This document shows, piece by piece, positions 38,820-55,536 of a DNA stretch of 64,000 nt; position 1 is the stretch's first letter, and the number at the start of each line of letters is the position of its first letter. This stretch comes from Cyanobacteria bacterium auto_48_18 (GTDB lineage Bacteria > Cyanobacteriota > Vampirovibrionia > Obscuribacterales > Obscuribacteraceae), in the NCBI GenBank assembly GCA_036170915.1, contig JAVHQC010000022.1, forward strand, positions 401,713 to 465,712, given 5' to 3'. The position numbers and the translations under genes are program-made. The notes beneath the pieces were generated by a model that was not told the DNA's origin, did not search any database, and saw only the letters and a list, made by a program, of their open reading frames with translations.

Positions 38820-38860
38820 AGAAGTTGAATCAAACGGGTGGGGATCTAGATAGAAGGTCA

Positions 38861-39307
38861 ATGATTGATTTCGAAGAATTGATTGCCGAACGGGGTTCGT
38901 CAAACTGGCAAAAGGAAAGTCCTGGTTCGCCTTCGTCCATTCAACTTCTCCAACAGGAATGTCCGTTTCCACTCCCGGCGGAATATGTCGAGTTCCTGCT
39001 ATATAGTGATGGAGCCTATGCCGAGCTACCCGTTGACCCGCTCTGGTGTGTTCTTTTTCCTGCGAACAAAGTTATGAGTACAAATATTTTGTGGGGAACT
39101 TTTGATGACCTACCTGGCTATTTGGTCATTGGAACAAATGGAGGCGGATGCGCTCTATTATTTAAAGTGTCAGAAGGCTCTTGGCCCGTTTATTGGACTG
39201 ATGAAATCTATTTTGGGCTAGAACCAGAACTCGTAGCAAACAGTTTCATTGAATTTGTTTGTATGTTAGGAAGGTCTGAGGACTCGGTAGTAAATGCTGC
39301 TGAATAG
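38861..39307 (+). CDS. SMI1/KNR4 (SUKH) family immunity-like protein
   Basis: LPAEYVEFLLYSDG, IGTNGGG, VANSFIEF. Confidence 0.85.
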   Translation: MIDFEELIAERGSSNWQKESPGSPSSIQLLQQECPFPLPAEYVEFLLYSDGAYAELPVDPLWCVLFPANKVMSTNILWGTFDDLPGYLVIGTNGGGCALLFKVSEGSWPVYWTDEIYFGLEPELVANSFIEFVCMLGRSEDSVVNAAE

Positions 39308-39347: not shown

Positions 39348-40709
39348 TTAAACAGCTGGTCCAACGCCCGCTAGTTTTTTCTCGGCCAATTTTTTCGCAG
39401 CCGGAGTTTTCAAATAACTAGCAGCGCTGTTGCGCAAAATCGTTGCCGTTGCGTGTTTAGAACCGAGCCAGAGAGCCCTTGAGGCATCGTTGTACGATTG
39501 TTGATAAAGCCCAAGCTTTAGCGCTGCCAGGCTGCGCATTTCGTAGCCGCCAGGTTTAGTAAATTGTTGTTTGATATATTTGTCGGCACAGGCAAAGGCC
39601 TCTTGCCACCGCTGTTGTTTTGCCAGCTGCACAAATTGGTCAGGCGCGCTGGTGGCAACTTTAGCACCAGAGTTATTTTTTGACTTGTCTAAAACTATGG
39701 CTGAAGCGACAACAGCCGTTGGTTTCGTCAACGTGCGTAAACTCTTACCTTTAATTGCCAGAGCTGTAGAAGGCCTTGTGCCCTCTGCGATTTCCATTTC
39801 GTTTTCGCCTTTATCGTAATGAGAGCAACCATAGCTGGTGTAAGCAGCTGTGTCGAAATTGCTGTAGTCGGCAAAAATAAAAGCTTTGCTGGCCATGCGC
39901 TCATGCATGATTTTGTCAGTTGTTTTAAAAGCTGCGTAGGGCAAATCATGGTGCGGATCTTCCACCGCCTTAATTGCTTCTTTATCGCTGATGCAATCGG
40001 CCAGATCTTTTCTATTCTTATAAATGTGCTGAGCATCAAAGCCTTGTAAGTGGCTGCGGGCAACGGTTTCTTGTGAGTGCGTGGCCAGATGTTCCAGGTG
40101 CAAACGCTTAAATAATTCAGCTTTGTGCGCAGGCGTGATCGCCTTATCTTCCCAAATATAATTGAGCTTTTCGGCTAGTGCCAGTTCGCAAGATAGGTCG
40201 GCAGAGTTCCAGAACCCGGGCAGGCAATGAAGAACGGTGCCATCGGCGGTCATGACAAAAGTTTGCAAATTATGCGGGCCGGCACCATTGGTGGTGTTAA
40301 CCGCTGTGCCGTCGATAGGGTGCACCCCTGAATCTCCGGCATAACCTTCTTGCATAATGTTTTTATAGCCGCAAACGAAACGATTGCGCAATGTTGTAAA
40401 AGTGGGTTCTTGTGAAAGCGACACGGCTCTCAAGCTATTGCCGGCACTTCACGTAAAGCCGTCGATGTTGCCGAGCATGTGAATCCATACGATCAGCTTA
40501 TGTTCTTTTTTTGCCTGTTCTTTGGCTGCATCTAGTGACGTCAGCCAGTTGATTTTTGAGCAGACAAGTTTTGATTGCGTCTGCGCTACACTGCCGGGCA
40601 AAACCGCAGGCAGCGCCGCCAGATTCTCAGCGGCAACAACCGGCGCTGTAATTTGCCAGGCGACTAAACCCAGACTGAGTGACAATGACGCTATCTTGTT
40701 GGTCAGCAT
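39348..40709 (-). CDS. Candidate selenoprotein: secreted thioredoxin-like/selenoprotein-N-like protein with C-terminal TPR; in-frame UGA at codon 87 (40449-40451)
   Basis: ORFs 40449-40709 and 39348-40433 are in frame and joined by TGA-AGT-GCC-GGC-AAT-AGC, giving INWLTSLDAAKEQAKKEHKLIVWIHMLGNIDGFT-U-SAGNSLRAVSLS; 453 aa total. Confidence 0.8.
40413..40432 (-). promoter_or_regulatory. Candidate SECIS hairpin
   Basis: TGAGAGC-cgtgtc-GCTTTCA, starting after a 16-nt spacer 3' of the UGA. Confidence 0.55.
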
Positions 40710-40748: not shown

Positions 40749-42542
40749 CTAGAAACCATTTTGTGGAGCCAACACGGGCGCCGGCACATTAATGTCTGGG
40801 CGCGCAGTCAATCGCAGCAGTTCAGGATTTTGAATATACGGATGCGGTGCAACCGGTTTGAAGTATTGTTGCAAGGCCTCGACTGAGATTCCGGCAGCGC
40901 GAGCGGCTTCTAGTTTTTCACCGGCAATCAAATTGGCTTTGGCAAACTGTTCGATGCCAGCGCGGTATCCCGAAAGTATGGCTTCATCTTTCTGATTGGC
41001 GTTCAACAAAAATTTGAGAGAGTGAAAACTGTTGACCTCAGGGCGAATGACGATACCGGCGCTTTCGGCCAGACCGTTCTGACCTTTCTCAAAATTTCCG
41101 CTCAAATATTTGGCAAATAAATAGAGGCCCTTGTTCACGTATGACATAGCGCCTACAGGCAAACTGGCAATAACGTTGTCTGTGTGCACACCAAAGTGGG
41201 TGCTGACCATCTGTGTGGGGCATTTGCCGAAGCGACCAAGGGCACCGTCAAACAAGCGCCGCCCGAGATATGTGACCGATTCGAGCAGAGCGGGAATGGC
41301 ACAGGTGGCACGTATGGCGTCGCCTACCTGAGCTGGCTGGTTGGAAATTAAATGGCGATTGTGGCCCCTGGTGTATTCGACAACACCGTTTTTGGTGAAC
41401 ATCACTTCGCTTTCGCGGCCAACGGCCATGGTCCAGAATTTTGCGGGCCATTCTTTGACGTGCAACTCGGTCAATTCGCCAAGTTTGCTCGACCCATAAA
41501 TGCCGTCTTGCAGTAAGTCGATTTTTTTGTTCTCGCGTAGCAGTGGCGTGAGCAATTTCTTTTTGTCGATCAGACCAGAGAAGTCTGTCATCTTGGCCAG
41601 TTCGATCATTTTGTAGGAAGGTAATTCAGCGGCAGCCATAACCGCAGGTATAGCCCCGCCACTGACACCACCAATGGTGTCAAGTTTAATTTCGGCGGCG
41701 CGGCAGGCTAAAATTACACCAGTGCTGGTCAGGCCCGCTTTTGAGCCGCCACTGCCGCAGACCAGGTGCCATCCTCGTTCTGTAGATTGTCCAGCTGTGG
41801 CTACAGCCTGTCTGTCTTTGATAATAGCGCTGGTGAGCGATGCATGGTCAGCTGAGCGCGAACGCTCACCCAGGGTGGAAAAGCCTTTGCTGAATGCCAT
41901 TCCCACGCCGTGAAAAGCTGCATTGGTGAGGCCGAATCCGGCAGCGGCCATGGCCGTGCGCTCCAGGCTGGCGGCCTCTCCTGTTTTAATCAGTGAGTTG
42001 GCTTGCTCTGTCACCACTCCACCTAAGATGCCTGAGGTGAGCGCGGCGCTGATGCCTTTTTCTGAAGCGATCAGACCAGTTTTGGTCAGCAGCTTGGGGC
42101 CGTATTCGAAAGCGGCTATGGCGCTTGCGCCAGTAACTGCATGGGCAAGTCTGTCTTTGTTGTCTTGGCCCTGTTTCAGTGGTTCTACGGCTCCTATTAA
42201 GCCACCGGCGGCCACTGGGGCAAAACTGCTCACTCCAGGAGCCCGCTTAATCAGTGCTGTGGCGGCGATGAAGACTGTGGCACTGCCCACCAATTCGCCG
42301 GCGATGTAGGCCTTTGATTGCGCTTGTTTGGCTTGTTCGGCCATTTCTTGCGGCGAGTCGGTTTTTCCGGTGATGAGCTGGCTTGTGCCTTTGAAGGGAG
42401 CCACTAGCTTGTGTGCCACGCCCGAGCCAAAGTTAGAAAGCACACCGGCTTCGGTGTCACTGTCATTGGAGTTTTGTCTATTCTCAGGTGCGGGGCGGTC
42501 GATGGGCATTTTTTGAGCGGAAATAATGGGGGACATTCCCAT
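40749..42542 (-). CDS. Patatin-like phospholipase with long Gly/Ala-rich hydrophobic N-terminal region
   Basis: GSGGSKAG oxyanion loop, GVSGG nucleophile motif, ATCAIP, FDGAL; start uncertain. Confidence 0.85.
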   Translation of the reverse strand: MGMSPIISAQKMPIDRPAPENRQNSNDSDTEAGVLSNFGSGVAHKLVAPFKGTSQLITGKTDSPQEMAEQAKQAQSKAYIAGELVGSATVFIAATALIKRAPGVSSFAPVAAGGLIGAVEPLKQGQDNKDRLAHAVTGASAIAAFEYGPKLLTKTGLIASEKGISAALTSGILGGVVTEQANSLIKTGEAASLERTAMAAAGFGLTNAAFHGVGMAFSKGFSTLGERSRSADHASLTSAIIKDRQAVATAGQSTERGWHLVCGSGGSKAGLTSTGVILACRAAEIKLDTIGGVSGGAIPAVMAAAELPSYKMIELAKMTDFSGLIDKKKLLTPLLRENKKIDLLQDGIYGSSKLGELTELHVKEWPAKFWTMAVGRESEVMFTKNGVVEYTRGHNRHLISNQPAQVGDAIRATCAIPALLESVTYLGRRLFDGALGRFGKCPTQMVSTHFGVHTDNVIASLPVGAMSYVNKGLYLFAKYLSGNFEKGQNGLAESAGIVIRPEVNSFHSLKFLLNANQKDEAILSGYRAGIEQFAKANLIAGEKLEAARAAGISVEALQQYFKPVAPHPYIQNPELLRLTARPDINVPAPVLAPQNGF

Positions 42543-42576
42543 AGTAGTTAAATATTGACAAGTCACAACACGGTTA

Positions 42577-54899: not shown

Positions 54900-55478
54900 T
54901 TACTTTGCAGTACGTTTTTTCAAAGGGGTGAAGGCAGGGTCTGGAGCCTCATTTAAAAGCGTTTCAATTGCTTCCTCTATCTCTTGCCCACGTCTTGGTT
55001 GAAAGCGAATTTTGCCCTTGCCGTCAATTATGTAAATTGTGGGCCAGCCTTGAACTTTCCAGGCCGTGGCAATCGGGCCTGAAGTATCACCACCATCGAC
55101 GATGCATGGCCACTGCACGGTGCCGTTGTCAATTATTTGTCTGAGTTCTTCTCGAGCATCGCTGTTGATGCCTAAAATCGTAAATGGTTTGCCAGCGAAC
55201 CTTTGCACGAGCGACCGCTCGTGTGGATACATTGATCGGCAGGGCCCTCACCAGTTGCCGAAAAAATCGAGCATTACTACTTTGCCACTGTAATCGCTAA
55301 GTTTAATAGCTTTGCCATTGACGTCTTTGCCGACGATTTCTGGTGCGAAACTGCCAATGGGCAGCATGCTTTCTTCTTCGGTCTCGAGTGATCTGATGCC
55401 GCTACTGCCACAACCAGACAAAATCGGCAGGGCGATGAGCAATAGAGTCAGCAACGATTTGATTTTTACTTTATTCAT
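54900..55478 (-). CDS. Candidate selenoprotein: TlpA/redoxin-family lipoprotein with UxxC active site; in-frame UGA at codon 77 (55248-55250)
   Basis: Lipobox LSGC; APEIVGKDVNG..IKLSDYSGKVVMLDFFGNW-U-GPCRSMYPHE…WPTIYIID..G.IR; the two called ORFs are in frame; 192 aa. Confidence 0.88.
55206..55223 (-). promoter_or_regulatory. Candidate SECIS hairpin
   Basis: CACGAGC-ggtc-GCTCGTG, starting after a 24-nt spacer 3' of the UGA; the GGUC loop matches the E. coli fdhF SECIS apical sequence. Confidence 0.7.
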
Positions 55479-55536
55479 AGTGATCCTCACAGGCAATTGC
55501 AGCGACCTATTATCAATCACACTCAAGTTTTATGTG

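Follow-up and report, generated by a model that had tools for sequence, protein, structure and literature searches.

In the genome of Cyanobacteria bacterium auto_48_18 (Obscuribacteraceae), what looks like two genes encoding 86 and 361 amino acids is almost certainly a single gene with an internal stop codon decoded as selenocysteine (Sec), and the product is probably an exported thioredoxin-fold selenoprotein of a group related to selenoprotein N (SELENON), the protein mutated in a human muscle disease. The protein is a cousin of SELENON and not its orthologue, and the Thr-Sec variant that it carries is new within the SELENON-related group. The gene resides in a stretch of 64,000 nucleotides of contig JAVHQC010000022.1, designated here as the window.

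Gene organization and reading frame

The gene is transcribed from the minus strand and extends from an ATG at position 40709 to a TAA stop, with a single internal TGA at codon 87 (Table 1). The 86-aa and 361-aa open reading frames had been recognized in the earlier note as two halves of one frame broken only by this TGA, and the minus-strand translation agrees with this reading, which left the strand unstated; all motifs quoted there were found as written. The expectation that standard annotation would miss the gene also holds, as the gene is split at the TGA and family members are likewise split in the databases. A signal peptide had been proposed as well, and the N-terminus indeed contains a basic residue, a hydrophobic stretch (11-residue mean hydropathy of 2.08) and small residues around positions 26-27, with such a hydrophobic stretch observed in 27 of 27 homologues checked, the export signal being judged by a hydropathy heuristic and not by a signal-peptide predictor. 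No Pfam or NCBIfam family was found for the read-through protein (0 families at E<=1), its two halves or the two paralogues, and a sequence-profile search of the PDB gave 0 matches.

Table 1. Features of the gene, with positions in the window
Feature	Position	Strand	Basis
Whole gene, 453 codons + TAA, with one in-frame TGA	39348..40709	-	Translation; homologues continue through the TGA over their full length
Probable cleavable signal peptide, residues 1 to ~27	40629..40709	-	Sequence and hydropathy heuristic; cleavage site placed by eye
Thioredoxin-fold domain of DsbD-gamma/DsbH/AGR/UAS type, residues ~47-195	40125..40571	-	Model with pLDDT 95.6; 3f9u with Z 11.8, rmsd 2.1, 109 aligned
TGA very probably read as selenocysteine (U87), start of helix after strand 1	40449..40451	-	TGA in 47/48 loci, TGT in 1; Cys in 9/16 spanning proteins; position from models
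Candidate bacterial SECIS, 7-bp stem, 6-nt loop with G second	40413..40432	-	Loop starts 23 nt after UGA; folding, synonymous conservation, constraints as set out in the main text of PMC13188914
Family-specific helical subdomain, residues ~193-305	39795..40133	-	Alignments and model; subdomain barely tested by the fold search
C-terminal TPR domain after a disordered linker, residues ~350-439	39393..39662	-	1na3 with Z 13.8, rmsd 1.9, 83 aligned; linker of low confidence in the model

A patatin-like gene (window 40749-42566) is located 39 bp upstream on the same strand, an arrangement that is kept among close kin only, and downstream lies a convergent SMI1/KNR4-family gene (window 38825-39307). 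Among 57 loci, mostly from close kin and with limited flanks, a patatin gene is present upstream in 16 and a kinase gene nearby in 21, and neither a family-wide operon nor a conserved neighbourhood pointing to a substrate was found in this set. A sigma-70-like site just upstream is at the level of chance (4 found vs 1.9 expected in the promoter/terminator scan). A search for RNA records that contain the sequence listed none.

Conservation of the internal TGA

The column of codon 87 contains TGA in all but one of the 48 loci covering it, the exception being TGT, with 42 distinct contexts in a set that includes the gene itself, its paralogues and some near-duplicates. Since the codon is common across the order, a TGA private to this strain or arising from a sequencing error, either of which would have undermined the proposal, does not account for it; the best-matching DNA record is identical letter for letter and may come from the source sample, and is hence not independent. 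Of 283 representative proteins, the 150 best were sorted by their position relative to the column: 112 start downstream of it, 20 stop immediately ahead of it, 16 extend across it and 2 are unclassed, with the spanning proteins having Cys in 9 cases, Trp and Ala in 2 each, and Ser, Pro and Thr in 1 each. The hallmark of bacterial selenoproteins, an in-frame UGA kept at a single column where homologues have Cys, is thus observed here, with other residues in 7 of the 16. Non-Cys homologues had been named beforehand as evidence against Sec, and they were indeed encountered, but as a minority (Ser, Ala, Pro or Thr in 5/16, Trp in 2); most of these forms are distant, and they are presumably inactive copies. 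The Trp entry P0006 nearly matches a locus (L087) whose codon is TGA, so that its Trp reflects a choice made in gene calling, and a second entry, P0022, also has Trp at the column. In oxygenic-type cyanobacteria, a distant stop-free clade was found in 14 of 300 genomes searched, with Cys in 5/5 of those inspected and no tRNA-Sec match in 13 of the 14. Based on these comparisons, the UGA at codon 87 is very probably read as Sec.

Some family members show peculiarities of their own. P0022 and P0123 have part of the domain internally duplicated, and one orthologue (L033/L041 of genome G072) contains a TAG after about residue 280 besides the TGA, which may represent a truncated copy or an assembly error.

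A candidate SECIS element

A hairpin with a 7-bp stem starting 17 nt after the UGA and a 6-nt loop, CGUGUC, starting at 23 nt, is predicted in the coding region. As set out in the main text of PMC13188914, bacterial SECIS elements lie 16-37 nt after the UGA, have a G in the first two loop positions and an energy of about -7.5 kcal/mol or better. The hairpin conforms to this consensus, with a marginal energy of -7.8 kcal/mol when folded with its flanks; it is no stabler than shuffled sequences (z of -0.6 to +1.0), and the isolated stem fell short of a filter set at -7.5 kcal/mol. This filter let 288 other TGA sites through, and a generic SECIS scan of this kind is too loose to count as evidence. 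It is the synonymous conservation, rather than the weak signal from energy, that supports the candidate SECIS. Codons +7 to +10 are nearly fixed synonymously (AGA 39/42, GCC 42/42, GTG 35/35 and TCG 39/40) as compared to values of 0.3-0.8 for most degenerate codons elsewhere in the gene, and the Cys paralogue L076 uses other codons at these positions with the synonymous constraint relaxed. Within the clade, pairing is retained in 89% of cells vs 35-61% for slid controls, and none of the 7 pairs changes on both sides. In the sister clade with a Cys-Sec motif, one G-C pair is replaced by A-U with an unchanged hairpin register in 4 of 5 loci folded, and the bacterial locus L116, described below, has a hairpin with the same register, nearly the same stem and the same distance from the UGA.

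Selenocysteine machinery in the genome and its relatives

Reading of the UGA as Sec presupposes the dedicated machinery, for which a search of selA, selB, selC and selD had been suggested. A tRNA-Sec scoring 75.8 bits, which is the sole tRNA with a UCA anticodon, selB above the cut-off and a Cys-form selD beside yedF are all present, so that the genome is not devoid of Sec machinery, but neither selA nor SepSecS was found in this 86% complete assembly. The simple reading is that the missing selA is an assembly gap. In 3 of 4 congener loci, selA adjoins the gene just upstream of tufA, and in two comparisons contig C27 of the assembly begins inside the selA-adjoining gene, with the genes beyond selA being absent too; all six congeners have selA. 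Among 200 other genomes of the class, 41 contain the gene, 44 contain selA above the cut-off and 40 contain both, given here without a statistic because kin are not independent. The one gene-positive genome without a selA match has tRNA-Sec, and 6 of the 8 members of the family Obscuribacteraceae that lack the gene also lack selA.

Two further features of the genome were observed in the course of this analysis. A second hidden selenoprotein gene is present in the window (54900-55526, minus strand, TGA at 55250-55248), encoding a lipoprotein of the TlpA/ResA type with the motif W-U-G-P-C; it is of a known kind and has a 7-bp hairpin, whose inner stem resembles that of the Thr-Sec gene. In addition, two dense tRNA arrays on one contig (G000:C33:15652-24684 and 164122-165603), each with 9-10 genes, duplicate tRNAs located elsewhere.

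Distribution, paralogues and sister clades

Where relatives come from named genomes, these mostly bear the label Obscuribacterales, Melainabacteria or a similar one. Within the same 200 genomes, the gene was found in 39 of the 47 that belong to the same family and in both that belong to the sister family, mostly in 2-4 copies, and in 0 of 151 from the other nine families of the class. The genome studied contains three paralogues with one TGA each, and the other two, L023 (G000:C22:55243-56436) and L024 (G000:C16:90909-92045), share the same TGA and hairpin and have basic C-terminal tails without TPR.

A Cys-Sec clade with SELENON spacing and Arg at +4 and +7 occurs in seven genomes of the class, and no match to it was found in this genome. 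Its Obscuribacterales members (L077-L080 and L082-L084) have a motif closer to SELENON than that of the gene and are split by database annotation. Natural Cys-Cys, Cys-Ser and Ser-Cys forms exist as well; L081 has Cys-Cys, yet it keeps the hairpin stem. The Ser-Cys form (L133-L137) constitutes a stop-free clade in cyanobacteria without tRNA-Sec, with further entries from Acidobacteriota and Myxococcota, and represents a selenium-free version, whose hosts are possibly culturable. Four weak TGA-bearing matches elsewhere in the phylum (L138-L141), all from genomes with tRNA-Sec, were rejected as family members, being short UxGC-type thioredoxin candidates and as such candidate selenoproteins.

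Thioredoxin-fold core and additional domains

The model of the mature protein has a mean pLDDT of 90, and since a fold search with the whole protein returned only TPRs, the core was folded alone. The core model contains a strand at 28-34, Sec at 43 and a helix at 44-54 (core-model numbering), as in the four-stranded thioredoxin fold, and its best match, 3f9u, is accompanied by others of the DsbD-gamma, DsbH, AGR and UAS types, with AGR3 and UAS domains among the top ones. The thioredoxin-like start proposed in the earlier note is hence borne out by structure prediction and fold search, to which Pfam and NCBIfam are blind, and the same applies to the C-terminal TPR, matched by 1na3 though neither database recognizes it. 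Foldseek gave nothing at E<=0.001 for either the whole-protein or the core model, and an ESM Atlas search with two natural homologues returned clusters of unnamed bacterial proteins as well as thioredoxin-like leads that stayed below 0.9. A solved SELENON structure appeared in none of the fold-search lists, which is an absence and not an exclusion.

According to the model, Sec87 would sit where thioredoxins carry the attacking cysteine. Cysteines of the read-through protein occur only at positions 50, 113, 162, 174, 239, 295 and 374, and within the context F-T-U-S no Cys is adjacent to Sec or three residues after it, the sequence U-S-A-G lacking the second Cys of a CxxC or UxxC motif. Besides, the near-invariant N147 aligns with the Pro that precedes strand 3 in SELENON. 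Due to the lack of a partner Cys and the Asn at the Pro position, this is not a standard dithiol thioredoxin. In the helical subdomain that follows, R218, S219, Q222, F224, D225, K262, H269 and R271 are near-invariant in the alignments.

The fold subtype is shared with the Thioredoxin_7 (PF13899)/DsbD-gamma/DsbH/AGR/UAS group, and weak Pfam hits are obtained for 10 of the 19 sequences in the wider alignment. However, the protein has neither CxxC nor a Pfam hit, and it can be told apart from the genome's Thioredoxin_7 proteins with a SELENON profile. Sec in a thioredoxin fold with an in-frame SECIS is likewise known from the VPGUxxT (NF041382/3), Trx7/PDZ (NF041199) and TlpA-like UxxC families, but these differ in the Sec motif, and relatives score far below the cut-off (best E of 5e-4), with no hit for the protein and its paralogues.

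Relationship to selenoprotein N

A motif scan of metagenomes yielded 31 loci, which were taken as 29 SELENON-type animal exons or transcripts, one bacterial locus (L116) and one chance match. The animal-type assignment was made using the SCUG motif, in which Cys is next to Sec (PMC12839072), residues equivalent to W453, G463, R466 and R469 of the human protein, as counted from its Sec462 (PMC12839072, PMC3541580 and PMC6438913), and EF-hand hits in the two long loci scanned. When a profile of animal-type sequences (10 domains) was compared to 45,126 six-frame segments of the genome, the three paralogues ranked 1-3 with 27.0, 24.4 and 15.3 bits (E of 9e-6, 6e-5 and 0.036), the third being on a par with the chance hits that come next in the ranking. 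Nine Thioredoxin_7 proteins of the genome, one of ten loci not having been extracted, reached at most 4.5 bits. With X at the Sec column, the scores of the paralogues dropped to 20.9, 18.4 and 9.4 bits. In profile-profile comparison, the family matched SELENON with a probability of 96.3 over 115 columns. The control is two-edged, in that generic Thioredoxin_7 proteins match the family almost as well as SELENON does (scores of 58.7 and 68.2), whereas their match to SELENON is poor (29.1). Thus, the nearest match to SELENON in this genome is the Thr-Sec family, and a specific kinship of the domain with SELENON appears likely from these profiles. SELENON was not reached by word-based searches for homologues that started from two alignments, with 8000 candidates scored.

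This kinship is limited to the catalytic domain. The homologous region covers about 105-115 columns with 21-22% identity, and includes Arg at +7 and the alignment of Sec on Sec that the earlier note had drawn by eye; a probable extracytoplasmic location and an RNA hairpin that closely follows the UGA within the coding region and has its centre on the same codons are further common traits. In contrast to animal SELENON, the read-through protein has no membrane anchor and no middle domain, a profile of the SELENON N-terminal and middle regions giving -2.5 bits, and Pfam detects no EF-hand in it, whereas EF-hand hits occur in the animal-type loci. Instead, it contains the helical subdomain and the TPR domain, and its UGA would be decoded through an in-frame bacterial SECIS. 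The description as an exported SelN-like selenoprotein thus stands for the export and for the homology of the domain, but not for the rest of the protein. Similarly, Thr does replace the Cys that precedes Sec, as had been noticed, but in addition the loop preceding Sec lacks one residue, and Asn takes the place of the SELENON Pro before strand 3.

L116 (L116:1170-2396, minus strand, adjoining a pilin-like gene) encodes a bacterial protein with middle and Cys-Sec thioredoxin domains and an in-frame SECIS. It is the top scorer of the 31 motif loci with the family profile (36.7 bits), and like the gene described here, it is exported and has an in-frame UGA with a similarly placed hairpin. It differs in retaining both the Cys-Sec pair and the middle domain of SELENON (63.8 bits), and its signal motif marks it as a lipoprotein. 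In a 62-row tree, L116 groups with the animal sequences at 100/99, and the Thr-Sec clade is a separate branch, also supported at 100/99, and is not the sister of SELENON in the best tree; all these groups are apart from seven Thioredoxin_7 rows at 100/99, with long branches in play. Tree tests rejected neither a placement of SELENON as sister to the Thr-Sec clade nor one outside the bacterial clades (p-AU of 0.35 and 0.34). An orthologue of SelN is also said to be described from Poribacteria in a thesis, on which the literature search found no paper.

Hairpins of animal and bacterial genes

Animal-type sequences contain a long coding-region hairpin, which retains at least 9 of 10 outer pairs in 20 of 21 distinct sequences, four loci that are intron-cut, chance or bacterial having been left out. 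Its centre lies within one base of that of the bacterial hairpin in the Thr-Sec gene, the Cys-Sec clade and L116. Three inner pairs in the bacterial register are kept in 10 of the 21, with about 22% expected from even codon use, an expectation worked out by hand for sequences that are not independent and in which the amino acids fix most of these bases. SELENON is known to have a coding-region redefinition element (PMC3541580), and such elements have been proposed, for selenophosphate synthetase genes, as descendants of bacterial SECIS (10.1101/014928). The shared centre and inner pairs are suggestive of a redefinition element that descended from a bacterial SECIS. A wider scenario, in which animal SELENON took its catalytic domain and Sec codon from the bacterial exported group and its redefinition element is an extended bacterial SECIS, seems unlikely on present evidence. 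If true, it would provide a second, independent case of such an element derived from a bacterial SECIS, and the Thr-Sec clade would be a natural Cys-less SELENON active site, present in 2-4 copies per genome and closely tracking the Sec machinery.

Proposed function

The protein is likely a periplasmic single-selenol reductase, and its assignment as a protein-thiol reductase is offered tentatively, with somewhat less than even chances. As comparison strongly supports, SelB with Sec-tRNA would bind the hairpin just 3' of the UGA and insert Sec87, and the signal peptide would direct the protein to the periplasm. There, the single selenol may attack an envelope protein at an oxidised sulfur, be it a sulfenic acid or part of a disulfide, and an outside reductant would release the Sec87 adduct, with the helical subdomain providing specificity and the TPR docking a partner. 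As a guess, the Sec-containing TlpA-type lipoprotein encoded 14 kb away could be this reductant.

The same selenoprotein could instead be a single-Sec enzyme acting on a small molecule such as peroxide, halide or a metabolite, with the conserved NGAGxxN loop and the helical subdomain forming a closed pocket, although we consider this rather unlikely. Known single-Sec enzymes with a thioredoxin fold include peroxidases and deiodinases, and the polar and basic residues that are nearly invariant and lie a long way from Sec along the sequence, the lack of a resolving Cys and the Asn at the aligned Pro position would suit such an enzyme. However, the best fold matches are DsbD-gamma, DsbH, AGR and UAS domains and not peroxiredoxins or glutathione peroxidases, and the TPR suggests a protein partner. 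Those same AGR3 and UAS matches, the intactness of homologues in which the column has Ser, Ala or Pro and the 2-4 paralogues per genome with differing tails could point to envelope scaffolds or chaperones, in which Sec87 would serve as a sensor or metal ligand; this is improbable, as Sec or Cys is retained in the great majority and, to our knowledge, the costly Sec is catalytic in nearly all studied cases. For a true bacterial orthologue of SELENON doing the same job, the homology of the domain and an Arg at +7 matching human R469 (PMC3541580 and PMC12839072) can be cited, but lack of the middle domain largely refutes it, no EF-hand or Cys-Sec pair is found, +4 is Asn and not Arg, and it is L116 rather than the Thr-Sec clade that groups with animal SELENON, which leaves this possibility very improbable. 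Finally, a UGA acting as a real stop or Trp codon, be it with two separate proteins, a pseudogene or a changed genetic code, is scarcely credible despite the absence of selA from the assembly and the two Trp entries, as one of these reflects gene calling, TGA ends many orthologues as an ordinary terminal stop, the only UCA-anticodon tRNA is tRNA-Sec, a stop would sever a well-predicted domain after its first strand and conservation across the order excludes decay.

Significance of a new selenoprotein family

The family is uncatalogued, being outside Pfam, NCBIfam and the 119-family table of PMC13188914. No SELENON-like family is listed in that table or found by a term search of the main text of PMC12013277, and the literature search retrieved no paper on bacterial selenoprotein N or on selenocysteine in the lineage of non-photosynthetic cyanobacterial relatives. 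Some limits apply, in that thioredoxin-fold selenoproteins are the commonest bacterial kind and the Thr-Sec clade is not the closest to SELENON. The chemistry of SELENON is poorly defined, no solved structure of it having turned up in the searches, and the bacterial cousins, which are small and soluble and naturally have Thr-Sec, Cys-Sec, Cys-Cys, Cys-Ser and Ser-Cys active sites, offer a ready series for addressing the role of each residue. For the non-photosynthetic relatives of cyanobacteria, an abundant selenoprotein family is added, nearly every member of which is split by gene callers. As this family accounts for three of the four selenoproteins found in the genome, with SelD in its Cys form and no formate dehydrogenase match, it may be a main reason why this lineage keeps Sec.
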